A stretch of 64,000 bases of DNA from a virus (lineage: Duplodnaviria; Caudoviricetes), in the IMG/VR virus record IMGVR_UViG_3300017747_003445, positions 2,781 to 66,780 of that record, one strand, 5' to 3'. Of the stretch, positions 9,019 through 37,901 are shown piece after piece. The translations under genes and the position numbers were made by a program. The notes below the pieces were generated by a model that was not told where the DNA came from, made no database searches, and was given only the letters and a program-made list of their open reading frames with translations. Numbering within the stretch: position 1 is the stretch's first letter; each line of letters begins with the position of its first letter.

Positions 9019-9630
9019 ATGAAATTAAACATCAACCGAATTGATTTAATTAAGAAGATAACAATTGGATTTCCCGATGGTTATGGCGCTGAAATAGGTT
9101 CGTTTAAGGGTGAGTTTGCAAAAGAAATAGTTGAAAATTGGGGTGGCAATTTATTTATGGTAGATGTGTGGATGGGACTCGGGGATGAATATAAGGACGC
9201 AAGTAACCATAATATCCATACAAACGCCTATGCAGATGCAATGAAATCTATAGAAGGATATGAAAATAGAGCAGTAATGGTAAGAGGAAGCTCTGAAGTG
9301 GTATCCGAGATGTTTAGAAATGAATCGCTTAATTTTGTATATATTGATGCCAACCATGCGTATGATTTTGTTATTCAAGATATTGAATTGTGGTATCCAA
9401 AGGTAAAAAAAGGGGGTTATTTACTTGGACATGATTACATAGATATGGATTGGGATAAAGACCCTCATTTTGCAGATTGCTATGGCAAAAACAAGCACAT
9501 ATATTCATCTACAGGGTTTTATTTTGGTGTGTTTGGCGTCAATCCAGCAGTGGATGAATTTTGTAAAACCAACAACTATGAACTTACCCTAACAAATGAG
9601 TGGTTTGGAACATGGATGATTAAAAAATAA
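9019..9630 (+). CDS. Class I SAM-dependent methyltransferase (Methyltransf_24-like)
   Basis: 'GAEIGSFKGEF', 'FVYIDANHAYD', 'VKKGGYLLGHDY'. Confidence 0.85.
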   Translation: MKLNINRIDLIKKITIGFPDGYGAEIGSFKGEFAKEIVENWGGNLFMVDVWMGLGDEYKDASNHNIHTNAYADAMKSIEGYENRAVMVRGSSEVVSEMFRNESLNFVYIDANHAYDFVIQDIELWYPKVKKGGYLLGHDYIDMDWDKDPHFADCYGKNKHIYSSTGFYFGVFGVNPAVDEFCKTNNYELTLTNEWFGTWMIKK

Positions 9631-9633
9631 ATT

Positions 9634-10524
9634 ATGAAATACCCCAAAGCGTATGTCTTATATGCCAATGAAAACTATATAGATATAGTTAATGCTTGTG
9701 CTAAATCAATTAAAACTTTCAGCAACCTTCCTGTTTTTGTCTATCTACTTAATTGTGATAAAACCGTTTTGGAAGCTGATAAAACCATTAATTGGGAGTG
9801 TGATATAGATGCAGATGAAAAAGAAGAAATGTACCTTAAGCAAAGTGATTTAAACTTCTATGTAAATAGGGCTAGTAAAAGAATTTATAGGCTAATAAAA
9901 GAACGACCACTTATTGTAAAGCATGCTCTAAAAATGGCTAATCTTGTGTGTTATGTGGATTGCGACTCCATAGCTACAAAGCATATAGATAGAGCCTTTA
10001 AATTATTTGATGAGCATAGCTTTTATCCATTTTTTTCTGAAGGTATTTATGATTTTTTAATGATGAATGGCAGGGGCGGGGCAACAGGGAATGACCTATC
10101 TACTACATTAGAACATCCAGCTTGTGAATTATTTAGTATTAATCAAAACAATCGTAAAAAATACAGGACATCAAATATATTTGTTGCAGGGCAAAATTGT
10201 ATTGAATTTTTAGACACTTGGTATTGGATGATGATACATCCTAAAATACTTGCAGACCCTGAATTATATGCCCCATTTCAGGATGAAACCATTGCAAACT
10301 GCTTGTTATTTAAACATAATTTTCAAGATGGACTTCCTTATGTTTATACTAATGGTGGATTAGATAGGATAGATGAAGTGCTTAATATTGGATTCAATGG
10401 TTCAGTACAATACATAGCTCAATGGTTTAAGATTCCTGCAAAAGAAGAAGATTTACTACTGTTCCATGGAGAAAAAAGAACTGCTGAAATGAATAAAATG
10501 ATTGAAAAATTAAAAACTATATGA
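9634..10524 (+). CDS. GT-A fold glycosyltransferase-like protein
   Basis: DxD motif 'YVDCDSI', 'QDET' and C-terminal 'FHGEK' as in GT8-like enzymes. Confidence 0.65.
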   Translation: MKYPKAYVLYANENYIDIVNACAKSIKTFSNLPVFVYLLNCDKTVLEADKTINWECDIDADEKEEMYLKQSDLNFYVNRASKRIYRLIKERPLIVKHALKMANLVCYVDCDSIATKHIDRAFKLFDEHSFYPFFSEGIYDFLMMNGRGGATGNDLSTTLEHPACELFSINQNNRKKYRTSNIFVAGQNCIEFLDTWYWMMIHPKILADPELYAPFQDETIANCLLFKHNFQDGLPYVYTNGGLDRIDEVLNIGFNGSVQYIAQWFKIPAKEEDLLLFHGEKRTAEMNKMIEKLKTI

Positions 10525-12566
10525 AGAAAATAAAACTACTTTACTTAATGCCTCATTGCAGTACAGGAGGTATGCCCCAATTTGTTCTTAAGCGTATTCA
10601 AACACTATTAGATTATACAGATGCATTTGAGATATTTGTTATTGAATATCATGATTATGGTAAATCATTTCCTGTTCAACGAAATCAACTTATAGAACTT
10701 TTAGGCAATAATTTTATTAGCTTACAAGAAAATAAAATGCGTGTAATGGAAATTATTCGCACCGAAGAAATAGATATAATTCATTTAGATGAGATGCCAG
10801 AATTAATGGATAATGATAGATTATTTAAAGATTTATATCGTAATGATAGAAAATGGTATATCGTTGAAACTTGTCATAATTCCTCATTCCGCCCTGATAC
10901 AGATAAAAGATTTCATCCTGATTTATATTCTTTTTGTACTCCTTGGCATGAAGATATATTTGGTAATATGGATGCTCAATTTGTTACAATACCATATCCT
11001 ATTGATAAGAAAGACAATCATGCAGTTAAAGAAGGTAAGCATGTTCTTAATGTAGGATTATGGACTTCTGGTAAAAATCAAGGTGAGGGGATTGAAATTG
11101 CACGCAAATACCCTAATATGACATTTCATTTTGTAGGTAATCAAGCTAGTAATTTTTCTGATTATTGGTTACAACTGATGAAGGATTTGCCACCCAATGT
11201 AATTGTATGGGGGGAAAGAAAAGATATAGATACTTTTATGGAGATGGCTGACATATTTATGTTCAATTCTACCTTGGAGTTGAATCCATTGGTACTTCGT
11301 GAAGCTATTGGGTATGGACTTCCAATAATCGCGCGGAATCTTCCGCAATACGCGGGAATGTATGATGATTATATTAATCCTATTGATACTGATTTAAATA
11401 CTTTAGAATGTACTTACAAAGTGCCTACTGACAATACCTCATTGACCTTTGGATTAAGACATGAAGAAGCCTATAAAAAGATATTAGAAAAGCCAATCCA
11501 TCAACAAAAAGTAAAAGTTATTAACTATTATGTGGATAACCCATTTTTAGAAATTAAGGGTGTTTCTGATAGTGATTTTAAGGTGGCATTTTATGATGAA
11601 AAAGATATATGCCATTATGAAAATACCATTAAATCAAATAATTGGGTTAAAGTTAACAGGCAATACTACACAAAATGGACTGCAAAGGTTTGGCAAGATG
11701 GAGAACTAATTTACGAGGACACACTAGACTTAAATAACAAAAGAGTTTACATAGCATTTGAAAGTAAATCATTAGGAGATACCATTGCATGGATGCCGTA
11801 TGTAGAAGAATTTAGAAAGAAACATAATTGTACGGTGATTTGCAGTACATTTTGGAATAGCTTGTTTGACTATCCAGAGATTGAATTTGTGGAACCATCG
11901 TTTGTAGTACCAAATATTTATGCCCTTTATCGTATTGGTTATTTTGATAATTTAGATAAGCTACCATTAAAGCCTGTAACAATACCTCTTCAAAAGGTCG
12001 CTACAGCCATTTTAGGACTTGATTTTAAAGAAATGATACCAATACTAGCTTATAAGCCTAAAGTGGCTAAAATGGGCAAATATGTAACAATAGCGACCAA
12101 TTCCACTTCAGGAATGAAGTTTTGGACTAAAGAGGGGTGGCAAAAGCTTATTAATTGGTTAGTTTCTGATGGGTATGAGGTGTATAATGTTTCCCTTGAA
12201 CCAAATCCATTTGATAATTGCACACAAATAACCACTCCTTCCCTTGAATCTAAAATGGATTGGATTGCAGGAAGTGAATTTTTTATAGGATTATCTTCAG
12301 GTTTAGCTTGGGTTGCTTACGCTATGGGTAAGAGAGTGGTAATGATAGCTAATTTCAGTGAAGAGTTCAATGAGTTCTCTTGCATAAGGATTGTAAAAAA
12401 AGATGTTTGTCATGGTTGCTGGAACAATCCTAATTTTAAATTTGATGCTGGAAATTGGAACTATTGCCCGATTTATCAAGGTAGTGATAGACAATTTGAA
12501 TGTCAAAATTCAATAACAAGTGATATGGTTATAGAAAAAATAAAACTAATGAATGGAAAATTTTAA
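10521..12566 (+). CDS. Fusion: GT4-like glycosyltransferase plus TibC/AAH-type (autotransporter strand-loop-strand) O-heptosyltransferase-like domain
   Basis: N-half 'ADIFMFNSTLELNPLVLREAIGYGLPII' (GT4); C-half 'SLGDTIAWMPYVEEFRKKH', 'FFIGLSSGLAWVAYA' and 4-Cys iron finger 'CHGCW…NYCP…RQFECQNSIT'. Confidence 0.85.
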   Translation: MKKIKLLYLMPHCSTGGMPQFVLKRIQTLLDYTDAFEIFVIEYHDYGKSFPVQRNQLIELLGNNFISLQENKMRVMEIIRTEEIDIIHLDEMPELMDNDRLFKDLYRNDRKWYIVETCHNSSFRPDTDKRFHPDLYSFCTPWHEDIFGNMDAQFVTIPYPIDKKDNHAVKEGKHVLNVGLWTSGKNQGEGIEIARKYPNMTFHFVGNQASNFSDYWLQLMKDLPPNVIVWGERKDIDTFMEMADIFMFNSTLELNPLVLREAIGYGLPIIARNLPQYAGMYDDYINPIDTDLNTLECTYKVPTDNTSLTFGLRHEEAYKKILEKPIHQQKVKVINYYVDNPFLEIKGVSDSDFKVAFYDEKDICHYENTIKSNNWVKVNRQYYTKWTAKVWQDGELIYEDTLDLNNKRVYIAFESKSLGDTIAWMPYVEEFRKKHNCTVICSTFWNSLFDYPEIEFVEPSFVVPNIYALYRIGYFDNLDKLPLKPVTIPLQKVATAILGLDFKEMIPILAYKPKVAKMGKYVTIATNSTSGMKFWTKEGWQKLINWLVSDGYEVYNVSLEPNPFDNCTQITTPSLESKMDWIAGSEFFIGLSSGLAWVAYAMGKRVVMIANFSEEFNEFSCIRIVKKDVCHGCWNNPNFKFDAGNWNYCPIYQGSDRQFECQNSITSDMVIEKIKLMNGKF

Positions 12567-13218
12567 TTGGGGTGACTCACCTGAAGAGTTCAACAAGCTG
12601 ATACACAAAGAGATATTTGAAGATAAGATGTACGAAAAGGTTTTTAAGGTGAAAGAGGGGGATGTCGTTTTTGACATTGGCGCAAGTACAGGGGCTTTTG
12701 CTTATTCTATCTTGGGTGCAAATCCAAGTCATGTTTTTTGCTTTGAGCCTAGTTACAAGGAGTTTATGACATTGGTATTAAATACTAGACAAGCGCCTGT
12801 TACCTGTGTAAACAAAGCCATATCTGGTATAGTAGGGGAGTTTAAATCAGACTATATATTTGATAATGACCAAGATAAGATATATTCTACCACTTTTATG
12901 CAAGTGATAAAAGACTATAATATAAATAAAATAGATTTTTTAAAAATGGATTGCGAGGGTGGTGAGTATGATATTTGCAATGCTAAAAACCTATTATGGA
13001 TAAAAGAAAATGTAAGCCAAATAAGTGGTGAATGGCATTTAAGCACTCCTGAATTAAAAAATAATTTCAGAATATTTAGGGAGAACTATCTAACGGCATC
13101 TAACTATAAAATATATTCACTAGACAATTTTGATATAACAATGGGTGTTTGGTCAGATGAATTTATAGACTATTATACAGAAGTTATCGTACACATAGAA
13201 AATAAAAAAGCAGGTTAA
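12553..13218 (+). CDS. FkbM-family methyltransferase
   Basis: 'VVFDIGASTG', 'CFEP', 'IDFLKMDCEGGEY'. Confidence 0.9.
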   Translation: MENFNWGDSPEEFNKLIHKEIFEDKMYEKVFKVKEGDVVFDIGASTGAFAYSILGANPSHVFCFEPSYKEFMTLVLNTRQAPVTCVNKAISGIVGEFKSDYIFDNDQDKIYSTTFMQVIKDYNINKIDFLKMDCEGGEYDICNAKNLLWIKENVSQISGEWHLSTPELKNNFRIFRENYLTASNYKIYSLDNFDITMGVWSDEFIDYYTEVIVHIENKKAG

Positions 13219-13436
13219 GGTTGTTTCTTCTCTTTTAGACCATAAGTAATCCATCTGTACCAAATACGCTCATGGATGTAGTATTGGATTGGTTTGTAAA
13301 CTAATTCAGCTACTCCAAATGCAGCTCCTACTTTTATAGAACCACTAATACCCCACATGATTCCAAATCCTACGGCTGTACTAATAATTCTATAGCTTAT
13401 AGTCTTGGCTAAATGCCTTTTCTTTTCTACTATCAT
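13215..13436 (-). CDS. DUF2061-like small membrane protein
   Basis: 'RHLAKTISYRIIST…YYIHERIW'. Confidence 0.8.
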   Translation of the reverse strand: MIVEKKRHLAKTISYRIISTAVGFGIMWGISGSIKVGAAFGVAELVYKPIQYYIHERIWYRWITYGLKEKKQP

Positions 13437-13810
13437 AAACCTAATTCTTTTCTAATTTTAGTTGCTGATATTTCTGCCACTTCTGATGGTGGTATATATT
13501 CTATAATGTCATATCCAACTCCTCTACCAAAGTTGACTGAAGAAATATCAGGAACAATAATAACTTGAACGCTTTCATTATCCCAATACTCTTTTGATAT
13601 GTTTTCAAATACCTGCCTTGTAGTAAATGGATTTTTTTCATTAACATCACCATCTCTAACAGCAATACATACCCTTCCTCCGTCATCTAATACTTGCTGA
13701 AATAATTGTTTATGAGCCTCGTGTAAAGGTTGCCAACGACCTATAAACAAAGACCATTGACTATCTTTTCTCTCCATTGAGCTTTTAACATGTACTTTTT
13801 TATTCCACAT
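13433..13810 (-). CDS. HxxH-class nucleotidyltransferase (cytidylyltransferase-like)
   Basis: 'FIGRWQPLHEAH' and 'ISATKIR'. Confidence 0.85.
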   Translation of the reverse strand: MWNKKVHVKSSMERKDSQWSLFIGRWQPLHEAHKQLFQQVLDDGGRVCIAVRDGDVNEKNPFTTRQVFENISKEYWDNESVQVIIVPDISSVNFGRGVGYDIIEYIPPSEVAEISATKIRKELGL

Positions 13811-14237
13811 ATTTCATTATTTTATCTGCTGCTTCTTCAATTGATTGATTATCGGTATTTATTTGCATGAAATTTTCCAATTCTGGTTCTTCAAAATCAG
13901 CAACATGAAAACCTTCTCTACCTCTTGGTTTTGTATAAGTTAAATATATCCATTTAACATCATCACTTAATGAATTAAGATAATCTCTAGCTTCTTTATA
14001 AGGATAGACAACAGATACAATTACATCTTTATTATTCCAGTCTAGATATGCAGCTATATCACTAGCCTTTTGCAAGTTCTTTAACCTACCTTGTCTACTA
14101 AAATCTTTATTCTGAAAAATTTCCCTAAGCTCATCTCCATCAATAAGTTCAGTTGTATATGAATCAAAGTACCCCCTTAACTCATTAGCTAAAGTTGTCT
14201 TACCACTATGTGGCTGTCCAAATAATACTATTATCAT
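13800..14237 (-). CDS. cysC: Adenylyl-sulfate (APS) kinase-like protein
   Basis: P-loop 'GQPHSGKTT', 'IDGDELR', 'FSRQGRLKN', 'FEEP'. Confidence 0.85.
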   Translation of the reverse strand: MIIVLFGQPHSGKTTLANELRGYFDSYTTELIDGDELREIFQNKDFSRQGRLKNLQKASDIAAYLDWNNKDVIVSVVYPYKEARDYLNSLSDDVKWIYLTYTKPRGREGFHVADFEEPELENFMQINTDNQSIEEAADKIMKYVE

Positions 14238-15052
14238 TTTGTATATCTAAATTGTTGAAAAAACCATTGATAATTATCCCAAATCCACCCTGTCACCTCT
14301 TTGCCCAACAGTTGTTTAGCTCTTGATGGAACAGGCTCTAGCTTTGTACGGATGGTATGGTCACCAAAGCTTCCATATACTTCATCATCTTCTTTAGTTA
14401 CTTGCTCTATGTTGTCCCAATCATGTTGGTAATATGGTATGCCTAAATACTCGTATATTTTTACCATTGTGCTATCAGGATATAAACATAAATCCTCAAA
14501 CTTTACAAATAAAACATGCTTGTCTATGTCTAATCTAAACATCTCTTGCAGCCTTTCAATAGCTAATCCTACGGGCTGTGATTGCGACCAAATATCTATA
14601 CGCTTTGGTACTGTCGTTCCCTGCATTTGCGCCCAATTTAAAATAGCATTTGCTTTGTCTGGATTCTTTCTATAGTTGTTTTCCATTGATGCAAACACAT
14701 CTCTTAAATCTCTAACCATCACAATAATTTTTGGGTTAGGTTGTATGAAATTTAAAAAGTCATAGTGTATGCCCCATCCTCTTGATTTGTCTACAATATA
14801 CTTTTTATTTGTAATGGCATTATAATAAGCTTCCATACCAAATCTACAAAAGGCTTGGAAAGCCGTTTTCATTATCGCAGAATCTTGTGCTTGAAATTCA
14901 GGAGAGTCTGTGTAATTACCTCTTGCAGCAAATACTAATTCTAAAACGCCACTTGTAGGCGTTGCATAGATATCTGAATTTTGAGCTAGTATGTTTTGTA
15001 AAAGTGTACTACCACTTCGGGGAAGAGAACTTTGGTAAAATATTTTTTCCAT
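14234..15052 (-). CDS. PAPS-dependent sulfotransferase
   Basis: 5'-PSB 'SLPRSGSTLL' and 3'-PB 'VRDLRDVFAS'. Confidence 0.9.
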   Translation of the reverse strand: MEKIFYQSSLPRSGSTLLQNILAQNSDIYATPTSGVLELVFAARGNYTDSPEFQAQDSAIMKTAFQAFCRFGMEAYYNAITNKKYIVDKSRGWGIHYDFLNFIQPNPKIIVMVRDLRDVFASMENNYRKNPDKANAILNWAQMQGTTVPKRIDIWSQSQPVGLAIERLQEMFRLDIDKHVLFVKFEDLCLYPDSTMVKIYEYLGIPYYQHDWDNIEQVTKEDDEVYGSFGDHTIRTKLEPVPSRAKQLLGKEVTGWIWDNYQWFFQQFRYTK

Positions 15053-15053
15053 A

Positions 15054-15932: not shown

Positions 15933-15950
15933 GAATATTTGGGTTTTGCC

Positions 15951-15958
15951 CAAAGTTA
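15951..15958 (-). promoter_or_regulatory. -7 box (TAACTTTG) for the GT9/sulfation operon
   Basis: CAAAGTTA on the + strand. Confidence 0.6.
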
Positions 15959-15998
15959 TGAAGTAACTATTAAATTAAAAAATTAATTTAATTAAATA

Positions 15999-16328: not shown

Positions 16329-16378
16329 AATTGTTATTTTTATTTATTTACAAATATAATTAATTATAAAGATATTTC

Positions 16379-17992: not shown

Positions 17993-17993
17993 A

Positions 17994-29822: not shown

Positions 29823-29823
29823 T

Positions 29824-32190
29824 TTATTTTGTTTTCATTGTTTGTACTTGCTTTCTGTCACTTACCGCTATTCTAGCATCTGCTGCTATTCTTTGAGCGA
29901 TAACTTTTGCTTCTTTTTGTATTTCAGCTTCTTGAATATCTTTATCCTTCTTGCCCATTTGAATAATATATTCCCATTGTTTTTCGGCATTAATTTTAGC
30001 TATATCTGCATTTAATTGGTCTTGCAATGTGATACGCTTTTCTTGTTCAGCTGTTTGAACTGCCATTGCATTACCTTGAGAAGCTTCTCTTACCTTCTGT
30101 AATTCATATTCCTGCATCTTCTCTCTACGCTTCTTAATCTTATATGCAAGTATCATTGATGCCATTTTTAAATTACGGCAACTCATTACAAGTATTTTAT
30201 CTTCAGGCTCAATCAATCCTTGAGAATCTCTAATGTTTAATTCTTGTATTAGTTGTTGTCTTTCGTAATCAGATGGGCTATCTTCAATAAATATACCAAA
30301 CTCATGAATAGATAAATCAGGATTAATTTGGAAAAATTTAACGGTTTCCGTACCCAATGCTCTACCATAACCTTCTACCTTACCTAACTTGACAGCTATC
30401 TGTACTTTTGCAACAATAGCGTCAGCAACATTTTGTACCAATTGCTTGTCCGCAAAACTTAATAAGTATAAAGCATTATTAGTGCTTTCCATTGCAGCGT
30501 TTGCAACTGGAACTAATGTTTTTGCATTTGGAGTAGAACCATCTGTCAATTCATTTAATCCTGATATTTGACGCATCATATCAATAGTGTTTTGCAACTC
30601 TTGATACAATTGACCAAATACAGCTAATTGCCCTGAAGCTTCAATGCTTACTGGCTTGTAGTTTGGATTTTGACTTAACAAATCTGTTGAACGATAAGGT
30701 ACAACAAAATTAGAAAATATAAAATCCATAACCTTTGTTGGATTCATCTTATCACCACCACCACCAAAATCAACTCCTTCTAATGCATTTAAATCTATAT
30801 TTATTAAATACGGAATTAATTTATTAGACATATTTTGAAGCCTGAACCAAGCTAAACAAGCTTTATCTTCTAATGGAATCAATCTTTCTGTAATGCCTGC
30901 GAAACGCATTTTATAGAAATTCCATGAGTATAATTGGATGTTTAATTTTGTATCCCACCAAGACGAAGGCTGTCTAATTTGATTTTCAGACATACCCCAA
31001 TCATACATATAATCGGTTTGAATTAACCATTTGCATTTATAAACAACCTTTTTAGTAACAGGCATATATACAGGCTCGGCTTGTCCTTTGCTTTTTGAGT
31101 CAACTAAACTAGGTACAGAACCTGCGTAGTCAAACTTTTCAATAGTGCCTTTCTCGTTAACCGCCAAGTCCATTTTGCTTGAATCCTGATACTTTGTTTT
31201 ACCAAAGCGAGCATTACCTCTGTTATCTATTTCTTCTTTATAAGTGTAATCATTCCATGATAGGAATTCAAAATCTAAAATAAGCACCTTAAAACGATTC
31301 CAATATTTTGAATAGTCTGTGCCATACATAAAATTAGATGGGTTACCAAAACGTCCGGCTACAGATTGAACTATCAAATTTAATTGGTCGGGGGAAAAAT
31401 AAGGTGCTAGGTCCCCTACATATACTTCTCTAACTTCTCCGAAATGTACTAAATCGGAAAAGTCATTTTTTGCGCAATACGATAATACTAAATTTTCAGG
31501 ATTAACTTCTCTTACATTCACCGCACCATTCTCATCTATATATTCAGTATATCCACCAATACCAAAATCAAATAAATTTTCAATAGTTCTTTTTCTTTTC
31601 TCGTCAAATTTATTTTTATACATTGTCAAAGCAATAGCACATTCTGCTTCCATTGCCATAACATGTTTGTAACCAAATTGTTGTTCCATTAACAACTGCT
31701 CCATATCTTCAGGCTCACCCTCCATTGGTTTTAATACTGGGCTATTAGCTAATTGCTCATTACCTGCCTTTATTGCAGCTTCACGCATCATCACCTTAAC
31801 TTTCATTTCATTAAAGCGTTCATCTTCTTCACTTTTAGCCAAAGGGTCAACTGCAAATGCTTGCAAATCATAACGCCTTTGAACAAGTTTTGAAATAGCT
31901 ATCTCTCTATACTTTGTTAAAAATGATGGTGGAGTCCAATCCGTATTAAGCCATGTTTTATCTGTTTGCTCATCTACATTCAAAAGTTTTTTATACTTTG
32001 TAGTGCTTTGTCTTCCTAATGCATACTCTCTTATTTCATTCATTTTTGATTGACCGAAATTCAACATATTATTTGGCACATAACCACGGGAATCACCCCA
32101 TGCCGCTTTGCAATATTGAAGTATCCAATCATATCCTTTTTCCCTTGGGTCAATCTGTTGATTAGGGTATGTATTTGTAGCTTGTTGCAT
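29824..32190 (-). CDS. Portal protein
   Basis: 788 aa upstream of scaffold/MCP; portal-like 'ENLFDFGIGG', 'VREVNPENL', 'ISGLNELTDGSTP' and C-terminal coiled coil. Confidence 0.85.
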   Translation of the reverse strand: MQQATNTYPNQQIDPREKGYDWILQYCKAAWGDSRGYVPNNMLNFGQSKMNEIREYALGRQSTTKYKKLLNVDEQTDKTWLNTDWTPPSFLTKYREIAISKLVQRRYDLQAFAVDPLAKSEEDERFNEMKVKVMMREAAIKAGNEQLANSPVLKPMEGEPEDMEQLLMEQQFGYKHVMAMEAECAIALTMYKNKFDEKRKRTIENLFDFGIGGYTEYIDENGAVNVREVNPENLVLSYCAKNDFSDLVHFGEVREVYVGDLAPYFSPDQLNLIVQSVAGRFGNPSNFMYGTDYSKYWNRFKVLILDFEFLSWNDYTYKEEIDNRGNARFGKTKYQDSSKMDLAVNEKGTIEKFDYAGSVPSLVDSKSKGQAEPVYMPVTKKVVYKCKWLIQTDYMYDWGMSENQIRQPSSWWDTKLNIQLYSWNFYKMRFAGITERLIPLEDKACLAWFRLQNMSNKLIPYLINIDLNALEGVDFGGGGDKMNPTKVMDFIFSNFVVPYRSTDLLSQNPNYKPVSIEASGQLAVFGQLYQELQNTIDMMRQISGLNELTDGSTPNAKTLVPVANAAMESTNNALYLLSFADKQLVQNVADAIVAKVQIAVKLGKVEGYGRALGTETVKFFQINPDLSIHEFGIFIEDSPSDYERQQLIQELNIRDSQGLIEPEDKILVMSCRNLKMASMILAYKIKKRREKMQEYELQKVREASQGNAMAVQTAEQEKRITLQDQLNADIAKINAEKQWEYIIQMGKKDKDIQEAEIQKEAKVIAQRIAADARIAVSDRKQVQTMKTK

Positions 32191-32211
32191 TAACTAAATA
32201 AAATTTATTAC

Positions 32212-32244
32212 CAAAATTAATTAAAAGTAAATAAAAAAAACAAA
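32212..32244 (-). promoter_or_regulatory. Bacteroidota sigma-A promoter for the portal-capsid operon
   Basis: TTTG(32241-32244)-N21-TAATTTTG(32212-32219). Confidence 0.65.
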
Positions 32245-32263
32245 ATATATTTTATTAATTAAA

Positions 32264-32809
32264 TTAATATAATTCCCGTCCTATTAAAAGGTCATCATAA
32301 TTCATTTCCATTTTTGTATTATAGGAAAATCCATTGTGTTGAATTGCTATAAAAGGGACAGATACATAATACTTTCCAAGACCTGCCAATGCCCTGTCAA
32401 TATGAGCATCATCCGGTAAAGATAAGTAAGTTTCATAGAATTTTTTATTTACAATGTAGCAATGAAATCCGGAAAACTCTTTTACTGAATTATCCTTTAA
32501 AATCTCTCCTAAATAAATACCACTTAAATATACATCAAAATCTTCAGGTTTATGCTCTAAAAAATAAGAAAAACTATTTTTGTTAGTAAAACGAACATCG
32601 TCTTCCATTATGCATATTTCAGGCAATTTATTATCTAAAGCATACCTGACGCATTGTTTGTGTGCTAAATTTATAGCTTTCTTAACCGAATGACTATCAT
32701 GAACTGCCGGAAAAAATTTAAAATCTCTTATGCCTTGAGTCTTAAATTCCTGCATTAACATATCAAATCTAGTAGCTGAATCAAAATTATGGATTACTGC
32801 TATTTGCAT
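32264..32809 (-). CDS. GT25-like glycosyltransferase
   Basis: 'INLAHKQCV…ICIMEDDV', 'GFHCYIV', 'HIDRAL'. Confidence 0.75.
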   Translation of the reverse strand: MQIAVIHNFDSATRFDMLMQEFKTQGIRDFKFFPAVHDSHSVKKAINLAHKQCVRYALDNKLPEICIMEDDVRFTNKNSFSYFLEHKPEDFDVYLSGIYLGEILKDNSVKEFSGFHCYIVNKKFYETYLSLPDDAHIDRALAGLGKYYVSVPFIAIQHNGFSYNTKMEMNYDDLLIGRELY

Positions 32810-33605
32810 TTAGAATGTTTTTAATCTTGTTAAAAGCCCCTTCGTATGTATAATATTCATTGTATATCTCCTTGATTTTTAACTGCTTATCTACTATCTG
32901 TAAATCAGTGTAGCTTTTTAAAATTTCCTCTATTTTACTTGAATCCTTTTCTTCTATTATAATTCCATAGTCTTCAAAATTAGCATCAAAGCAACTAATA
33001 AATTCATCTGAAATATATACAGGGATGGTTTCGTATTGCATACATTCTGCTATTCTAAAACTATTCAATCCATACCCCCTTGGACATAATCCGAATAATG
33101 AATGAGAGATTATATCGCAAAATGATTGTATGTCATGCTGCTTATCGGAAATATAAAAATCCTTATTCTGTATGTTAAATACATTTTCCCTAATTGGATG
33201 CGTATGTGTACCAATAAATGATGCAAATATTGACTTGCTATGATTCCACTCGTATGAATGTGGCTTACACAATAAAGGAATTTCAACCCCCGTCTTTTTG
33301 CTCATACTGAAGACTAAAATATCTAAATCTTTAAAATCAGTCAGTACCCCGTCATCGTATTGGCAAATAGTCCAATATTTCAAATCTTTAGGTAACTTAT
33401 CTACATAGTCTTGTAATTGCTTTCTTGCTACAGGATTATTACCATAATTATTATTTACATGATATGCTGTCCATTGAATTGGAAGGTAATGCCTTTCAGT
33501 GTTTGGGATATGCTCGTGTGAAACCCAATCTTCAAATATAATATCATTTTCCCAAGGATATATTGTATTTATTGTTGGAGTAAATTCTTCTGGTATGTGT
33601 ATCAT
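32787..33605 (-). CDS. Exostosin-like (GT47) glycosyltransferase
   Basis: 'SLFGLCPRGYGLNSFRIAECMQYETIPVYISD'. Confidence 0.85.
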   Translation of the reverse strand: MIHIPEEFTPTINTIYPWENDIIFEDWVSHEHIPNTERHYLPIQWTAYHVNNNYGNNPVARKQLQDYVDKLPKDLKYWTICQYDDGVLTDFKDLDILVFSMSKKTGVEIPLLCKPHSYEWNHSKSIFASFIGTHTHPIRENVFNIQNKDFYISDKQHDIQSFCDIISHSLFGLCPRGYGLNSFRIAECMQYETIPVYISDEFISCFDANFEDYGIIIEEKDSSKIEEILKSYTDLQIVDKQLKIKEIYNEYYTYEGAFNKIKNILNANSSNP

Positions 33606-34237
33606 ATTTTGTATTTACGGATATATAATGCATCTGTCCACGTTTCGGCTACCCACTCCCCCGTTTCAACTCTTTCAAATCCTCTTTGCAACATGAAATA
33701 ATCAAGCTCCTCTATCAACATGCACCCCTTATACGTTTCTTTCATATTCACCTCAAGCAATGCGTAATCAATATTTTTAATCAAATCGCCCATCCCTTCT
33801 ATTGCTAAATGCTCCGCACCTTGTAAGTCTACATTCAGGAAATTTATAGTAGATACATCTACATCTTTTAGCAATGTATCTACTCTTTGTGTTTTCATAG
33901 CTATTTGTTCTACATAATGCACTTCAGGATGAATCAATGCATGAACTCCTAATTCCAAAATTGATGAACTTTGACTTTCATTATTTGATACATTGAATAC
34001 AACTTCATCGCCATCCACATTACTCAAGCAAGCATTATATGCTGTTTGTTGTGGGTATGGTTTTATATTATGCTGGAGGTCTAAATAAACTTTAGGTATA
34101 GCCTCTACCCATATAACTTTCCCCTTGCAATAATTGTCATAGGCATCTCTTTCCTGTCCGGTAGAAGCTCCTAAATGCAACACCCCGTTTATATCTAACT
34201 TATGCTTGTTGACTAAATAGTCAAATGAAATCATCAT
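33602..34237 (-). CDS. FkbM-family methyltransferase
   Basis: 'VLHLGASTGQE', 'WVEAIP', 'FLNVDLQGAEH'. Confidence 0.9.
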   Translation of the reverse strand: MMISFDYLVNKHKLDINGVLHLGASTGQERDAYDNYCKGKVIWVEAIPKVYLDLQHNIKPYPQQTAYNACLSNVDGDEVVFNVSNNESQSSSILELGVHALIHPEVHYVEQIAMKTQRVDTLLKDVDVSTINFLNVDLQGAEHLAIEGMGDLIKNIDYALLEVNMKETYKGCMLIEELDYFMLQRGFERVETGEWVAETWTDALYIRKYKI

Positions 34238-35241
34238 ATACTTGCGTTTTTATTAACTTGATTATCTATCCAAACATATAAATTTTCTAACCCTGTTTTT
34301 AAAGGCTTTGATGGTCGCCACCCTAAAACTTCTTGTATTAACTCATTATTTGAATTTCTTCCTCTTACGCCTATTGCGTTAGATTCTATATTTTTAATTT
34401 TTATATTTTTACCCGAAATGCTAATTACTAATTTAGCTAAATCGTTAATAGATATAATTTCATCAGAACCAATATTAACTGGTTTTCTATAATCAGATTC
34501 AAGCAATCTCATCACACCTTCTATACATTCATCTATATATAAAAAAGACCTTGTTTGTAAACCATCTCCCCATATTTCTATTTCCCCTCCATCTTTAGTT
34601 TCGCATACTTTTCTAGTAACAGCGGCTGGAGCTTTTTCTTTACCACCAATCCATGTACCATCTTCTCCAAATATATTATGAAATCTAGCTATTCTTATAT
34701 CAAGACCATAATTTCTATGAAAAGAATCAAATAGTATTTCGCTAAATATCTTTTCCCATCCATACGGGCTATCTGGGTTAGCTGGGAAACAATCGCTTTC
34801 TTTTAAACCTTTGTTATCTGTAGACTCTTGTATTTCTTGTGGGTATGCGCAAGCGCTTGATGAAAAGAATAATTTTTTAACGCCACATTTCGAAGCATAA
34901 AATGCAATATTTAAATTTACCAATGCAGAGTTATGCATAACATTTGCATCATTATCTCCTGAAAAAATATACCCTGCACCCCCCATATCCGCCGCCATTT
35001 GAATTACTAAATCAAATGCATTATCCTTATCTAATAAATTATGTTGTTTTGGCGACCATAAAACCCTGCTAACTAATTGCTCATCTCTTAAATCCCCAAC
35101 GATAAATTCATCTGCTTTTGTTTCAGAATGTTCTGGGTATTTCAAATCTACGCCTCTAACCCAATAACCATCTTTTTTTAATCTTTTAACCATATGGCTA
35201 CCTATAAATCCACCTGCGCCACAAACTAAAGCTGTTTTCAT
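34234..35241 (-). CDS. NAD-dependent epimerase, GDP-mannose 3,5-epimerase-like
   Basis: 'GAGGFIGSH', 'MAADMGGAGYI', 'SSSACAYP', 'YGWEK', 'GGKEKAPAA'. Confidence 0.85.
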   Translation of the reverse strand: MKTALVCGAGGFIGSHMVKRLKKDGYWVRGVDLKYPEHSETKADEFIVGDLRDEQLVSRVLWSPKQHNLLDKDNAFDLVIQMAADMGGAGYIFSGDNDANVMHNSALVNLNIAFYASKCGVKKLFFSSSACAYPQEIQESTDNKGLKESDCFPANPDSPYGWEKIFSEILFDSFHRNYGLDIRIARFHNIFGEDGTWIGGKEKAPAAVTRKVCETKDGGEIEIWGDGLQTRSFLYIDECIEGVMRLLESDYRKPVNIGSDEIISINDLAKLVISISGKNIKIKNIESNAIGVRGRNSNNELIQEVLGWRPSKPLKTGLENLYVWIDNQVNKNASI

Positions 35242-35243
35242 TT

Positions 35244-35843
35244 TTATTTATTTAATTTTAAATACCATTGTTTCTTAAACCACCATAATCCCCAACTATT
35301 CAAAGTATCCTCTGAATGTAAAATATCTTCTGGATTAAAGGTCTGCCCATTTAATTCATCTCTTAAAAAAACTTTAGGAACTACTTCATCAACCGCTCTC
35401 ATTACTTCAGGAGCATTGTAATCATGCCCTGCTAATATGTTTTCATCTTTTACCTTTGGATACCAAGCTTTTATTTCTTTTTTAGTTTCCTCGTAGGTAT
35501 GTGACGAATCAATGTAACAAAAATCAAGATAACCATCATTAAATAATTTTACAGCCTCTAAACTTTCAAATGGAACTACTTCAATAAACTCCCCTAATCC
35601 ACTTTTTATAATGTTTTGATATATAGTTTTCATTTGTAAATAACCGCCATAATCCATGTTATCTACCATATACAATTTAAACTTTTTGCCAAGTCGGTTT
35701 ATTTCTTGTGCTAAATAAATGGCACTATCGCCATTAGCAACACCAACTTCACAAACTTTGCAATCGTCAGGAAGCTCTTTTGCAATTCTTCGGTAGAAAT
35801 GCTGAAAATCAAACATAAGTAATTCACTCATAATTTTATCCAT
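35244..35843 (-). CDS. Class I SAM-dependent methyltransferase (Methyltransf_24-like)
   Basis: 'CEVGVANGDS', 'FCYIDSSHTYE', 'LAGHDY'. Confidence 0.85.
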   Translation of the reverse strand: MDKIMSELLMFDFQHFYRRIAKELPDDCKVCEVGVANGDSAIYLAQEINRLGKKFKLYMVDNMDYGGYLQMKTIYQNIIKSGLGEFIEVVPFESLEAVKLFNDGYLDFCYIDSSHTYEETKKEIKAWYPKVKDENILAGHDYNAPEVMRAVDEVVPKVFLRDELNGQTFNPEDILHSEDTLNSWGLWWFKKQWYLKLNK

Positions 35844-36565
35844 TCAGGTTTTACAATATCGCTTGTATCTAATCCGCACCATCCTTCGCTAAACCAAAAT
35901 TGCGGGAATATTACTTTTTTATTTTCGTTTCTGTTTAAATAAGCTCCCCACCAACTAAATGTAGACGGGCTACATATTTGATGCTCACACCAACTCATTT
36001 CTATTAAATCACTTTGCTCATCTGTATTTCCGGAATATTCGCAATCATTTCTATGTTTAAACGCATCCATACACCAAGCAATGTCATCAGAGAAAAACTT
36101 AAATTTATAATCAGGAAACATAGCCATAGCTTTTTCATACCATTCAATAGTAACTTCAGGATGTTTTTCTCTTAAAGTAACATAATCCCCTCTTCTTACA
36201 TGAACTGCGACATATCCCTCTTTTTTTACCCAATCAAATTTTAATAAATATAAAATCTCACTTCTGTATTCATCAAAATATTTTGCAGTTTGTCGGTATC
36301 CTTCTACAATAATATTTTTATCTCTCCAAGATTCTTCAAATGGCAACTCCTCGTAAGAGTGCTTACCTTCCCATAATTGTATTTTTTCTAAACTTGGATT
36401 ATATGTATTATCAATTAAATGATGACAATAAATAGGACTCCATTTTGGATTGCTTGTTTCTAATGGGACTGTAAATTCTAAATCATGTTTTATAGCATAA
36501 GCTATGGCTGTCGCACATTCAAATAAAAAATTACCCATTCTTCCTGCGTTTGTAAAAGATACCAT
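35828..36565 (-). CDS. GT11 alpha-1,2-fucosyltransferase-like protein
   Basis: 'GRMGNFLF', 'GYRQ', 'VAVHVRRGDY', 'FFSDD', 'STFSWWGAYL'. Confidence 0.9.
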   Translation of the reverse strand: MVSFTNAGRMGNFLFECATAIAYAIKHDLEFTVPLETSNPKWSPIYCHHLIDNTYNPSLEKIQLWEGKHSYEELPFEESWRDKNIIVEGYRQTAKYFDEYRSEILYLLKFDWVKKEGYVAVHVRRGDYVTLREKHPEVTIEWYEKAMAMFPDYKFKFFSDDIAWCMDAFKHRNDCEYSGNTDEQSDLIEMSWCEHQICSPSTFSWWGAYLNRNENKKVIFPQFWFSEGWCGLDTSDIVKPEWIKL

Positions 36566-36582
36566 AAGTAAAATTAATTAAT

Positions 36583-37278
36583 TTAATTTAATTTCCTAAT
36601 CTTTTCTAATAATATTTCTCTAAAATCACCTGTTCTTTGAACATTATTTATATAATGAGATTGATTGTGAACCAAATGATTATACCTTAACTCGTGAACA
36701 ATATGAATATACCTACCTGACATTAACCAATTGTAATTTTGAAATAAGCTATCACTTGTTACGGGGTCTGTTGTAGCATCCCAAACATCACAATAAGCAT
36801 TTTTGTTTACAAAATAATTCATACAATTTAAGCAAGTTTCAAACATTGGCTTATCTATGTATTCTTTTAAGTTGTCTTTGCTAACTATTAAATCTGAATA
36901 TTCTGTATAATTGAATGTTGGTTTTGCCCAATCAGGAGCTAAAATCATATCTTCCGCCCATTCTTGTTCAAAAATTTTATCAAGGTATGATTTATCTATT
37001 TGATTATCAGAGTCTAATATAATGCAATAGTCGGTAGGAGATAAACTAATAGATATATACTTATTAGCATAACAATCTCTATTAGTCAAATTTCTATATA
37101 ATTTAACTTTAGATAATTTATCACACTCCTCCTTTAATTTGTTATAAATATGCATTTCGCTTGCATCATCTACAATGATAATAGCTTCTACCCTGTCATC
37201 ATTGTAAACTTCTTTAAAACTATTTAATGTCATTTCTACTCTATTCCAAGTAGGTATGCAGATTGATAATGTTCTCAT
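36583..37278 (-). CDS. GT2 glycosyltransferase
   Basis: 'ICIPTWNR', 'IIVDDAS', 'ILDSDN'. Confidence 0.85.
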   Translation of the reverse strand: MRTLSICIPTWNRVEMTLNSFKEVYNDDRVEAIIIVDDASEMHIYNKLKEECDKLSKVKLYRNLTNRDCYANKYISISLSPTDYCIILDSDNQIDKSYLDKIFEQEWAEDMILAPDWAKPTFNYTEYSDLIVSKDNLKEYIDKPMFETCLNCMNYFVNKNAYCDVWDATTDPVTSDSLFQNYNWLMSGRYIHIVHELRYNHLVHNQSHYINNVQRTGDFREILLEKIRKLN

Positions 37279-37901
37279 GGTTGTATTTCTCCTAGTTTTT
37301 GATAGTATCTGTTTTCTATGAATGGTCGCCAGTCTATAAATTGACCGCCTATATCAGACATTCCTTCTTTCTGTGTGCAAAGTAACGGATATGTTATGTA
37401 AGTTTGCTGCATAGGTTGTATTTTTTCAACAATACAATTATCTATCGGAGCATATAGCCCTTGAATTAATATCTCTTTCATCCCTTGCAATGACAAAGCC
37501 CAAGCGTGGGTAGCGAAAGCCTTTTCTACTCTTAATAAATTAGGGGATGTTCTTGCTCTAAAACCGCCAGTAACCTGCGCTCCTAATAGTAATATATGCC
37601 AAGCTTCGGGTAGTTGTTTTACTACCTTTTCCATTGTTTCATTAGGGTTGCCACACGATTCAACAAACATTGCATCGTCTTCAAAAATTAATACTGAATC
37701 CCATTTGTTTTCAATTGCTTTTTCAAATATACCCTGCACTGTAAGGCGTAGTCCTTCTGCTCCTTTTTCATGCTTAATAGCATTAACTAGCTCATACGGA
37801 ATACTCCATTTATCTAATTCGCCGGCTATATCTAATAACCTATCAGTTCTTTCGGGTAAATTTATAACGAATATTTTCGTAAAAAAGTCTGTCCACGCCA
37901 T
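37275..37901 (-). CDS. GT25 glycosyltransferase
   Basis: 'FVINLPERTDR', 'LIFEDDA', 'ATHAWALS', 'PIDN'. Confidence 0.85.
   Translation of the reverse strand: MAWTDFFTKIFVINLPERTDRLLDIAGELDKWSIPYELVNAIKHEKGAEGLRLTVQGIFEKAIENKWDSVLIFEDDAMFVESCGNPNETMEKVVKQLPEAWHILLLGAQVTGGFRARTSPNLLRVEKAFATHAWALSLQGMKEILIQGLYAPIDNCIVEKIQPMQQTYITYPLLCTQKEGMSDIGGQFIDWRPFIENRYYQKLGEIQP

Follow-up and report, generated by a model that had tools for sequence, protein, structure and literature searches.

The enzymes that add sugars, methyl groups and sulfate, to which this freshwater phage gives about one fifth of its 67-kb genome, are encoded in three independently inherited units and not in one pathway. The island adjoining the tail fiber gene very probably acts on the fiber, because it includes a member of the TibC/Aah family and because its modules co-occur with both kinds of fiber repeat in many unrelated phages. 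On balance, we consider it probable that the phage modifies its own fiber through separate kits of enzymes, every kit serving a single repeat type. Soluble phage enzymes would carry out these modifications in the cytoplasm of the host, either ahead of assembly or while it proceeds. The assignment of the acceptor is one of guilt by association, drawing on family memberships, conserved catalytic residues, domain fusions and gene-neighborhood statistics that we observed directly. The original prediction, in which the phage decorates its own virion with one branched glycan built by all eight of its glycosyltransferases, stands in part: the pairing of the fiber-side island with the fiber is supported, while the single pathway and the inclusion of a second island between terminase and portal are not.

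Enzyme inventory of the phage genome

The window analyzed is a 64,000-nucleotide stretch of a genome recovered as a single 66,780-bp phage contig, and all coordinates refer to this window. The large terminase (phrog_6681) and portal (phrog_6547) have their best similarity, at 29% identity, to Flavobacterium and Cellulophaga podoviruses. The enzyme list of the original prediction was borne out, comprising eight glycosyltransferase (GT) genes that carry nine GT domains, four SAM methyltransferases (Methyltransf_24 at 9019-9630 and 35244-35843; FkbM at 12553-13218 and 33602-34237), a GDP-mannose 3,5-epimerase, a sulfotransferase and a short APS-kinase-like gene. Six of the GT genes pass Pfam cutoffs (10521-12566, 32264-32809, 32787-33605, 35828-36565, 36583-37278 and 37275-37901), and the two without a Pfam match (9634-10524 and 15054-15953) were confirmed by fold using AlphaFold models and Foldseek.

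The GTs had been described as free of transmembrane anchors and the genome as free of a flippase, Wzy or undecaprenyl transferase, and our scans agree on both counts. A Kyte-Doolittle scan (19-residue window, threshold at least 1.6), a crude method standing in for SignalP or TMHMM, predicted a membrane helix in none of the enzymes, and none of the genome's real genes has several hydrophobic segments, so there is no candidate flippase, Wzy-type polymerase or polyprenyl-phosphate transferase. The further step, that enzymes without an anchor must have a cytoplasmic acceptor, is not supported. LPS-core and O-antigen GTs of the same families (GT2, GT4, GT9, GT11 and GT25) are soluble and use lipid-linked acceptors at the inner membrane face, and the lack of membrane helices is normal among them.

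Alternatively, some or all of the enzymes may remodel the host envelope by acting on lipid-linked LPS or LOS core, O-antigen or capsule at this membrane face, with host flippases exporting an altered glycan that could, for example, block superinfection or the sticking of progeny to debris. We give this reading a modest chance of being right in some form and consider it unlikely for all of the enzymes. The GT2, GT4, GT9, GT11 and GT25 families are the usual ones of LPS and O-antigen synthesis, and weak NCBIfam matches (WcaA, PglI and EpsD for the GT2 gene; heptosyltransferase III and RfaQ for the GT9-like gene) point in the same direction, but the phage itself has no gene for an initiating polyprenyl-phosphate transferase, a flippase or a polymerase, and the two repeat-specific pairings described below would be left without explanation. 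Furthermore, the key enzyme of the fiber-side island is of a family whose members are known solely as protein glycosyltransferases (PMC4358343). Because Pfam and PHROGs scans found no integrase, the phage looks lytic; with its enzyme genes in or beside the late operon, an envelope change would have little time to matter.

DNA hypermodification, in which the GTs would glycosylate modified phage bases against restriction as in T4, seems highly improbable. Base glycosylation is a frequent task of phage GTs (10.1101/2023.12.21.572611; PMC12619734), but among the window's larger genes Pfam and PHROGs scans turned up neither a pyrimidine hydroxymethylase nor a TET/5mYOX-type dioxygenase, and no DNA methyltransferase or further enzyme that prepares bases for modification. 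Nor do known DNA pathways accommodate a sulfotransferase, O-methyltransferases, a GDP-sugar epimerase or a TibC-type enzyme, and the genes are placed with late structural rather than replication genes. A known system with similar features is the O-glycosylation of mycobacteriophage virions (Freeman et al. 2023, Cell Host Microbe, as cited in PMC12619734), in which phage GTs, few in number, decorate the phage's own structural proteins in the host, placing glycans on the C termini of capsid and tail-tube subunits. Here, by comparison, the candidate acceptors are fiber repeat arrays, and the enzymes belong to other families and are joined by methylation and sulfation genes.

The TibC-like unit and collagen-like repeats

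The fiber gene (17994-24635, minus strand) encodes a 2213-residue protein with Pfam Collagen, Peptidase_S74 and LbR_Ice_bind matches, and the many hundreds of Ser/Thr residues ascribed to it amount to 701 (386 Ser and 315 Thr). Its sequence features mark it as a chimera of collagen-like and beta-roll repeats, in a phage that has both of the matching kits. The collagen-like part is made of Gly-Thr/Ser-Ser blocks at residues 33-290, 368-430 and 586-729 (nt 22449-24539); Gly-X-Y periodicity is uninterrupted in four blocks totaling 462 residues, encoded by mixed codons, and Pfam Collagen matches nine stretches (E=7e-57). Among the 154 Gly-X-Y triplets, Thr occupies X in 113 and Ser in 32, while Y is taken by Ser in 112 and by Thr in 25; Pro is absent and Lys occurs once. 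Pro/Hyp or charged pairs that would stabilize the helix at X and Y were not found in these triplets; with no helix-stabilizing Pro, a stabilizing modification is an attractive idea, and stabilization of a proline-free triple helix is one role that a glycan may have here. Like trimeric phage tail fibers that have an intramolecular chaperone, the fiber carries a Peptidase_S74 chaperone at its C terminus (PF13884, 30.3 bits, residues 2129-2179). Directly behind its gene lies that of a 537-residue BNR/Sortilin-type beta-propeller (16379-17992, minus strand; PF15902, 36.2 bits), which is probably a distal fiber or receptor-binding component and whose homologs come after collagen-like fibers in other lineages.

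The unit that we pair with the collagen-like repeats lies on the plus strand (9019-13218). Its central gene (10521-12566) encodes a two-domain enzyme with an N-terminal GT4-type half (Pfam Glycos_transf_1, 40 bits, residues ~160-290) and a C-terminal half (residues 349-675) that matches TIGR04414 at 239.9 bits, against a cutoff of 200, over profile positions 25-372 of 374; the match to TibC structure 4RAP has E=5e-41. The enzyme keeps an Asp aligned to TibC D110, in a column that differs in the D110A mutant chain 4RB4, and four Cys near the C terminus aligned to TibC C339, C342, C358 and C370 (numbering of the catalytic Asp and iron-finger Cys from PMC4358343). The PDB alignment begins at TibC residue 61, the N-terminal beta-barrel of TibC spanning residues 1-97, and Pfam TibC_1st is seen weakly in homologs (E ~5e-4 in L058 and Mel-JY01). 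Judged by sequence, the C-terminal half is a true TibC/Aah family member and a putative protein O-glycosyltransferase.

The unit begins with a CmcI-like SAM methyltransferase of the Methyltransf_24 type (9019-9630; PF13578, 59.1 bits), a variable accessory that is missing in close relatives G001-G004. Between it and the TibC-like gene lies a GT-A fold enzyme (9634-10524; GT8/GT6/GT24-like, no Pfam match) with an invariant DxD motif (D109, D111), whose AlphaFold model (pLDDT 88) has the UGGT catalytic domain, glycogenin and ABO transferases as top Foldseek matches, and an FkbM-type methyltransferase (12553-13218; PF05050, 40.3 bits) follows at the far end. In most other phages the GT-A enzyme is fused with the GT4-TibC-like protein, in forms of 997-1229 aa, and single polypeptides of the order FkbM-GT-A-GT4-TibC-like (L034) or GT-A-GT4-TibC-like-FkbM (L058) tie all four activities into one pathway. 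In this pathway the TibC/Aah-type domain would put the first sugar on Ser/Thr of the Gly-Thr/Ser-Ser blocks, extension would fall to the GT4 domain fused to it and to the neighboring GT-A enzyme, and capping of the glycan to the two methyltransferases, a scheme in which we infer both the sugars and the order of steps.

TibC/Aah enzymes glycosylate Ser residues of repeat proteins in the cytoplasm (PMC4358343). The E. coli pairs TibC-TibA and Aah-AIDA-I (TIGR04414; 4RAP/4RB4) share with the phage system the family, the catalytic Asp and the four-Cys iron finger, as well as the arrangement of a soluble cytoplasmic enzyme encoded beside a long, Ser-rich, surface-bound repeat protein. Unlike these, the present enzyme is phage-encoded and fused to GT4, in other phages also to GT-A and FkbM, and its neighbor is a proline-free collagen-like fiber instead of a beta-helical autotransporter. 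Since no autotransporter was found in the 66.8-kb genome and the conserved neighbor is a collagen-like fiber, family membership is kept in a system that, taken whole, is not of the TibC-TibA type. TibC uses ADP-heptose as donor and forms a dodecameric ring; Pfam, NCBIfam and PHROGs scans of the phage found no recognizable heptose-pathway gene. Known TibC/Aah substrates are beta-helical autotransporters and not collagen-like chains, which counts against the collagen-like blocks as target, and the beta-roll of the fiber resembles these substrates more than its collagen-like part does.

The pairing of TibC-like enzymes with collagen-like proteins was seen from both directions. The 80 viral contigs with a TibC-like gene fall into 43 clusters at 90% identity; in 29 of these the locus also encodes a Gly-X-Y protein that is free of Pro and rich in Ser/Thr. 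Where at least 7 kb is present on both sides, 19 of 24 clusters have such a neighbor, usually 0-5 kb away, and five do not. In the reverse search a TibC-like enzyme was present in 17 of 79 Gly-Thr-Ser loci; many of the remaining loci end early, and the majority of loci with intact flanks have no TibC-like enzyme within 10 kb. An independent sample of 44 fiber loci gave five with both features, one with each alone and 37 with neither (Fisher p=3e-5), although p-values for both pairings overstate independence, as the loci are phylogenetically related. The pairing spans unrelated backbones, including jumbo contigs, a 735-kb megaphage, the cultured Microcystis phage Mel-JY01 and an L014-type lineage whose terminase is only 26% identical and whose TibC-like enzyme is the sole GT seen in a 21-kb locus. 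Close relatives of this phage retain collagen fibers and the TibC-like enzyme and have no beta-roll.

Giant viruses offer a further parallel (PMC9614988). They encode autonomous, soluble, multidomain GTs with methyltransferase domains, as in the A064R/A061L machinery of chlorovirus PBCV-1, where A064R is GT-GT-MT; a collagen-like protein is a glycosylation target in Mimivirus (L230/L71); and the fibril cluster of Tupanvirus (Megavirinae) holds many GTs, methyltransferases and SAT/APS kinase. However, the hosts of these viruses are eukaryotic, the sequence relationship to the enzymes described here extends to broad fold classes only, and L230 acts through hydroxylysine, which is not on offer in a Pro-free, nearly Lys-free fiber.

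The sulfation module and beta-roll repeats

The second part of the fiber is a beta-roll of 15-residue repeats that covers ~1350 residues (residues ~750-2100, nt ~18336-22388), each repeat having an invariant Ser and often Tyr. The kit that we pair with it (13433-15953 plus a 109-aa gene) is on the minus strand, co-directional with the late structural operon. Directly behind the fiber genes, the gene of the 109-aa protein (15999-16328) travels with the module; copies 66-88% identical lie between fiber and GT9-like gene in other phages. The GT9-like GT-B glycosyltransferase (15054-15953, likely start ATG at 15932) has no iron finger and no Pfam match, and its model (pLDDT 70) has WaaF 1PSW, GT9 structure 3TOV, TibC and WaaC as top Foldseek matches. 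Next comes a PAPS-type sulfotransferase (14234-15052; PF13469, 74.6 bits against a cutoff of 27; PF00685, 55.2 bits) with a P-loop-like PRSGST motif at residues ~11-16. The short APS-kinase-like P-loop kinase of 145 aa (13800-14237), whose sequence shows the P-loop and a DGD..R motif, scores 46.4 bits against a Pfam cutoff of 21.1 (PF01583) but over profile positions 4-101 of 152 only, and its 56.6 bits to NCBIfam APS kinase are below the cutoff of 127. Last is an HxxH nucleotidyltransferase of 125 aa (13433-13810; PF01467, 23.8 bits).

We propose the beta-roll repeats as the substrate of both the GT9-like enzyme and the sulfotransferase. The phage APS kinase would make more of the sulfate donor PAPS available, possibly with the aid of the small nucleotidyltransferase. 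The latter was considered as an ATP sulfurylase and rejected, having no similarity to Sat or CysD and a profile that matches only NMN adenylyltransferases and related HxxH enzymes (E 4.5e-8 against NMNAT structures). It constantly accompanies the APS kinase and sulfotransferase, and this gene company is what suggests an APS-forming role, which we offer as a hypothesis. The truncation of the kinase and the NMN-adenylyltransferase-like character of its neighbor count against this kit.

A sulfated glycan in particular had been predicted. Among solved structures, the sulfotransferase comes nearest to protein-tyrosine sulfotransferases, at a weak match (TPST1, E 6e-4), and Tyr is common in the beta-roll repeat, so tyrosine sulfation is as open as sulfation of a sugar. 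Loci that combine sulfate activation with sulfotransferases include the rhizobial NodPQ/NodH/NoeE and Xanthomonas RaxST with RaxPQ. The phage gene has a weak NoeE match, and its locus likewise sets a sulfotransferase and its own PAPS-supply gene beside the genes of the presumed substrate. Unlike those loci, this one has a truncated kinase, an ATP-sulfurylase step that is missing or done by the NMNAT-like 125-aa protein, and a phage-fiber context in which the candidate acceptor is a sugar or tyrosine.

Beta-roll fibers occur in 20 of 192 loci, all 20 with a sulfotransferase, and in none of the 145 loci that have no sulfotransferase (nominal p=1e-14). A second sample, obtained by searching with the beta-roll segment alone, yielded 26 untruncated clusters. 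The sulfotransferase is present in 19 of these and so is its constant partner, the GT9-like gene, with identities of 34-90%. A TibC-like gene accompanies just five of the 26; this kit mostly occurs without the TibC-like unit. We found no paper describing either enzyme-repeat pairing.

Because the loci are related and the enzyme genes sit beside the 3' end of the fiber gene, these associations could partly reflect co-inheritance of a DNA block. Taken further, the enzyme genes might be accessory cargo hitch-hiking in a recombination-prone fiber region that lies beside fibers simply because phages can absorb insertions there, with small molecules or other proteins as substrates, which we regard as quite improbable. 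The fiber-side island is indeed highly mosaic and as variable as the fiber: the TibC-like enzyme is only 45-60% identical among phages with 96-99% identical terminases, the sulfation module with its sulfotransferase is 73-92% identical across otherwise unrelated backbones (terminases ~26% identical), and collagen-like genes are missing from some TibC-like loci. Yet cargo gathered at random would not divide according to the type of repeat, whereas both pairings were recovered starting from the enzyme and starting from the repeat, and both still hold at enzyme identities of 34-50%, far too low for a recent block transfer.

The island between terminase and portal

The third unit lies between terminase and portal, as originally placed, and consists of eight minus-strand genes, neighbors overlapping or abutting. 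It runs from a GT25 glycosyltransferase whose start overlaps the terminase stop (37275-37901; PF01755, 36.1 bits) through a GT2 enzyme (36583-37278; PF00535, 46.1 bits), a GT11 enzyme of the alpha-1,2-fucosyltransferase family (35828-36565; PF01531, 80.6 bits) with close relatives confined to this phage clade, a Methyltransf_24 SAM methyltransferase (35244-35843; PF13578, 61.9 bits), the epimerase homolog (34234-35241), an FkbM methyltransferase (33602-34237; PF05050, 58.6 bits) and an exostosin-like GT47 enzyme (32787-33605; PF03016, 43.9 bits) to a second GT25 enzyme that is present in all clade members (32264-32809; PF01755, 27.2 bits).

This island is fixed in the phage's clade and tracks the conserved head genes. 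It was found in none of ~280 fiber, TibC-like and sulfotransferase neighborhoods of other phages, and one relative keeps it together with a fiber that has no collagen repeats, on a contig where no TibC-like gene was seen. The co-occurrence of glyco-islands with Ser/Thr-rich fibers, expected in the original prediction, therefore applies to the fiber-side modules and not to this island, for which we found no link to any virion protein. The same observations speak for envelope remodeling by this island, whose enzymes come from families typically engaged in LPS and O-antigen synthesis. For the island by itself we consider it about equally likely that the acceptor is a host envelope glycan or one of the conserved components of the virion, the capsid for example.

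The island would make an O-methylated glycan of the L-galactose or fucose type. Its epimerase homolog matches the plant GDP-mannose 3,5-epimerase 2C59 over the full length (E=1.7e-88, 300 bits), with the next family at only 92 bits, and would make GDP-L-galactose or GDP-L-gulose. Within the clade this gene falls into two allele classes, with 58-99% identity varying independently of the flanking genes, and the FkbM methyltransferase is represented in part of the clade by a divergent allele of 31% identity.

A chimeric fibre and the enzymes around it

The phage genome is a single contig of 66,780 bases with a G+C content of about 32%, and the window covers 64,000 of them. Between about 60.9 and 13.4 kb the genes lie on the minus strand in one tightly packed late block. 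PHROG family matches identify the large terminase (37901-39949; E=1.8e-74) and the portal (29824-32190; E=6.5e-67), and for most structural and island genes PHROGs yield no function. Among cultured phages, podoviruses of Flavobacterium and Cellulophaga come nearest, with a terminase identity of only 29%, and at the DNA level megablast found no close relative among them.

The fibre (17994-24635, minus strand) has 2213 residues, including 386 Ser and 315 Thr, and combines two kinds of repeat. Four Gly-X-Y blocks totalling 462 residues (amino acids 33-290, which hold two blocks, 368-430, and 586-729) carry mainly Thr at X and mainly Ser at Y, no Pro, and mixed codons. A beta-roll of about 1350 residues is built from a 15-residue repeat with the core Gly-Gly-x-x-Asn-Thr-Ala-Ser-Gly, in which Ser is invariant and Tyr frequent, and the C-terminus is a Peptidase_S74 chaperone of the type found in trimeric fibres.

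The original prediction listed eight glycosyltransferase genes, four methyltransferases, an epimerase, a sulfotransferase, and an APS kinase, and Pfam, predicted folds, and profile matches show this inventory to be correct. Six of the glycosyltransferase genes and the four SAM methyltransferases pass Pfam: a Glycos_transf_1 domain with a GT9-type C-terminal half (10521-12566), two GT25 genes (32264-32809 and 37275-37901), GT47 (32787-33605), GT11 (35828-36565), and GT2 (36583-37278) all lie above the cut-off, while the sulfotransferase scores 74.6 bits and the APS-kinase domain 46.4 bits. Because 9634-10524 and 15054-15953 had no Pfam match, their folds were predicted. The former adopts a GT-A fold (pLDDT 88) with an invariant DxD motif, resembling most closely the UGGT catalytic domain, glycogenin, and ABO transferases; the latter adopts a GT-B fold (pLDDT 70), with the GT9 heptosyltransferases WaaF and WaaC and TibC as its best matches. 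Profile searches against PDB sequences gave one marginal match for the GT-A gene and nothing for the GT9-like gene. The predicted absence of membrane anchors from the transferases also held in a Kyte-Doolittle hydropathy scan, the sole means by which membrane helices were judged: no 19-residue window reached 1.6 in any enzyme, and no real gene of the genome encoded a protein with several hydrophobic segments.

Outside the islands lie two GNAT-type acetyltransferase-like genes on the minus strand, one above Pfam cut-offs (5102-5524) and one with a weak match (50400-50825), which could be further tailoring enzymes or unrelated. Pfam and PHROGs also reveal a replication region with a primase/helicase-like protein (58382-60241, minus strand), an SSB, and a Lin1244-like protein. 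They recognised no DNA polymerase among window ORFs of at least 100 aa (one 86-aa ORF was left out), and the phage may rely on a host polymerase or on an unrecognised one.

Collagen-like repeats and the TibC-like enzyme

In the first fibre-side unit (9019-13218), the gene at 10521-12566 joins a GT4 half to a half that resembles TibC. Residues 349-675 of its product match TIGR04414 (Aah/TibC autotransporter O-heptosyltransferase) with 239.9 bits against a cut-off of 200, and the C-terminal half aligns with the structure of TibC (E=5e-41). It conserves the Asp that was replaced in the D110A crystal form, together with all four iron-binding Cys, following the TibC numbering of the catalytic Asp and the iron-finger Cys (PMC4358343). 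Judged by its sequence, the enzyme is a genuine member of this protein-glycosyltransferase family. To our knowledge, TibC/Aah enzymes have so far been known only from pathogenic E. coli-type adhesins; this is the closest enzyme family and the window enzyme belongs to it, but the acceptor type differs.

A scan of viral contigs returned at least 93 TibC-like relatives, and the 80 loci retained form 43 clusters at 90% identity. A Pro-free, Ser/Thr-rich Gly-X-Y protein shares the locus in 29 of the 43 clusters. Where flanks of 7 kb or more are present on either side (24 clusters), 19 have such a protein, usually less than 5 kb from the enzyme gene and often convergent with it, as in the window. 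The reverse search, starting from the Gly-Thr-Ser repeat, recovered the enzyme in 17 of 79 loci, many of the other 62 ending inside the repeat. Among 44 beta-roll fibre loci, a sample picked for neither the enzyme nor collagen blocks, five have both, one has only the enzyme, one has only the blocks, and 37 have neither (Fisher p=3e-5).

This pairing spans unrelated phage backbones. In one lineage (67.7 kb; terminase 26% identical and adjacent to the portal), the fusion is the sole transferase in a 21-kb locus and adjoins a 1722-aa collagen-like fibre. The pairing is also present in a 735-kb megaphage and in the cultured Microcystis phage Mel-JY01, where a 1226-aa GT4-TibC-like protein is encoded 1.7 kb from a Gly-Thr/Ser-Ser open frame. 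Most phages encode the GT-A and GT4-TibC-like parts as a single fusion, to which an FkbM methyltransferase is often joined at one end or the other, and therefore these activities belong to one pathway.

Four close relatives of the window phage (terminase 86-99% identical) retain collagen-like fibres and a diverged GT4-X-TibC-like enzyme, and lack both a beta-roll and sulfation genes. In a more distant relative the fibre is free of Gly-X-Y blocks, and no TibC-like gene occurs on the 51-kb contig, not even behind the fibre. The beta-roll was also weighed as an acceptor for the TibC-like enzyme because it resembles autotransporter beta-helices; as a general acceptor it was rejected, since most enzyme-bearing phages have collagen-like fibres without a beta-roll.

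In three of the close relatives (G001, G003, and G004; loci L197, L201, and L203, about 15035-17894, minus strand), the GT4-TibC-like version has 934-957 aa and carries in its middle an extra domain of some 250 residues with a weak DUF5648 match. Between the window's portal and putative scaffold lies a ferritin-like gene (29328-29822, minus strand; PF00210, 55 bits), conserved at 72-99% identity in most of the clade; a copy 70% identical occurs in an unrelated contig about 8 kb from that contig's TibC-like gene, and a link to the iron-finger enzyme would be speculation.

Beta-roll repeats and the sulfation block

The second fibre-side unit (13433-16328) comprises a nucleotidyltransferase, a kinase, a sulfotransferase, the GT9-like enzyme, and a 109-aa protein, and recurs as a block directly behind the fibre genes in other phages. 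Among 192 loci collected for other reasons, the sulfotransferase accompanies the beta-roll fibre in all 20 loci that have one, and the fibre occurs in none of the 145 that lack the sulfotransferase. Because the block could be co-inherited with the 3' end of the fibre gene, the beta-roll segment alone was used as a query. In the resulting 26 untruncated, non-redundant loci, the sulfotransferase and the GT9-like gene were each found in 19, at identities down to 34-50%, and the TibC-like gene in only five, which makes this an old pairing that does not depend on the first unit.

The nearest solved relatives of the sulfotransferase are protein-tyrosine sulfotransferases, a weak match that makes Tyr, instead of a sugar, a possible acceptor. 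The APS-kinase-like protein is short (145 aa) and falls under NCBIfam cut-offs, and the 125-aa nucleotidyltransferase beside it resembles NMN adenylyltransferases, not ATP sulfurylase.

The window fibre holds both repeat types, and the window phage carries both kits. The enzyme genes might simply have hitch-hiked with the fibre, an explanation contradicted by the way in which the enzymes sort by repeat type. We consider it likely that the fibre-side island decorates the fibre.

The terminase-portal island and the possible coats

The eight genes of the terminase-portal island (32264-37901) overlap or abut, the first overlapping the terminase stop. For the epimerase gene (34234-35241), the match to the plant GDP-mannose 3,5-epimerase reaches E=1.7e-88, and the enzyme class that follows scores only 92 bits. 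All 31 contigs found via the GT11 gene carry the island, as does every portal-related contig of sufficient reach, and it is complete and in the same order wherever the locus extends far enough. Its divergence keeps step with that of the head genes, while the fibre-side island diverges like the fibre. Allele replacement is seen in two island genes. In a comparison with loci L161-L191, the epimerase of phages otherwise 95-99% identical falls into two allele classes (about 58-61% and 88-99% identity), and an FkbM methyltransferase (33602-34237) drops to 31% in one subclade. These patterns suggest gene-sized recombination inside the island, which could change the glycan made.

The original prediction joined all eight transferases in a single armour glycan on the phage's own fibre or capsid. 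Three units inherited separately do not support a single glycan; fibre decoration by the fibre-side island is likely given its repeat-specific pairings, while the terminase-portal island shows no fibre link. Likewise, the expected co-occurrence with (GTS)n fibres holds for the TibC-like unit and fails for the terminase-portal island, which is missing from all of the roughly 280 loci of other phages collected for TibC-like, collagen, sulfotransferase, or beta-roll genes and is retained in the relative that lacks both collagen repeats and the TibC-like gene. The island might also extend the fibre glycan, a role that its distribution speaks neither for nor against.

That this island is inherited with the conserved head genes speaks mildly for an acceptor among conserved virion components, and its enzyme families fit host LPS-type glycans equally. 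Remodelling of host glycans is possible for this unit, and the missing membrane anchors, offered earlier as a reason to expect a cytoplasmic acceptor, leave it so. The same explanation leaves the repeat-specific pairings of the two fibre-side units unaccounted for. Glycosylation of DNA is unlikely, since the window yielded no precursor enzyme for base modification.

Our statements on the acceptors are inferences throughout; in their most far-reaching form, which we regard as rather improbable as a whole, the phage would wear three separate self-made coats. A methylated O-glycan primed by the TibC-type enzyme would let the Pro-free Gly-Thr-Ser chain fold as a stable collagen triple helix; glyco-sulfate or tyrosine-sulfate would cover the beta-roll of the same fibre, drawing on the phage's own PAPS supply; and the terminase-portal island would place an L-galactose-type methylated glycan on the capsid. 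Fibre modularity would then consist of repeats together with dedicated modification kits travelling with each repeat type.

One scan of bacterial and archaeal genomes with a GT11 alignment found no cellular counterpart or context and returned a single contig, L286 (CAZYEM010000001.1; 63.6 kb, GT11 82% identical), which had been assigned to an "uncultured Bacteroides sp." MAG. The contig evidently belongs to a phage of the window phage's clade, and therefore the bin is probably phage-contaminated or made of a phage genome; as a pointer to a Bacteroidota host it is weak at best. The distant relative (G005, L206) has three extra genes in its island, one of them a further FkbM methyltransferase. 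Another of the three (9313-10023, minus strand), with a PD-(D/E)XK endonuclease domain and a sigma-70 region-4-like helix-turn-helix, looks like a homing-endonuclease-type insertion.

Chloroviruses, mimiviruses, and a few mycobacteriophages are known to encode the glycosylation of their own particles, which is considered a rarity among phages. The nearest parallel in phages is the virion glycosylation of mycobacteriophages (Freeman et al. 2023, cited in PMC12619734). Giant-virus systems come closest in complexity, with the three-domain A064R, L230 acting on collagen-like proteins, and a Tupanvirus fibril cluster of many transferases, methyltransferases, and SAT/APS kinase (PMC9614988). In literature on phage TibC-like enzymes, glycosylated collagen-like fibres, and virion sulfation, we found no paper describing the TibC-collagen or sulfotransferase-beta-roll pairing and no report of sulfate on phage particles; a phage heptosyltransferase is annotated in one paper as belonging to LPS synthesis (PMC10747093).

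If these proposals are true, chemical modification of the fibre by the phage itself would extend to hundreds of aquatic phages that infect Bacteroidota and cyanobacteria, some adding sulfate. The reading of fibre sequences for host-range prediction would change because the binding surface would be partly glycan. Such coats would offer a natural answer to the stabilisation of Pro-free collagen helices, and would provide biotechnology with soluble protein-glycosylating enzymes that have defined repeat acceptors. Since Mel-JY01, a carrier of the TibC-like/collagen pairing, is already in culture, the idea is directly testable. The Mel-JY01 record (L160, PP395634.1) holds at 1-3052 a plus-strand Gly-Thr/Ser-Ser open frame of at least 1016 residues that runs into position 3052, where the deposited annotation gives minus-strand "hypothetical protein" CDS at 1-651 and 739-2298 with Pro/Val/Glu-rich products. 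The true gene probably lies on the plus strand, perhaps extending across the start of the record.
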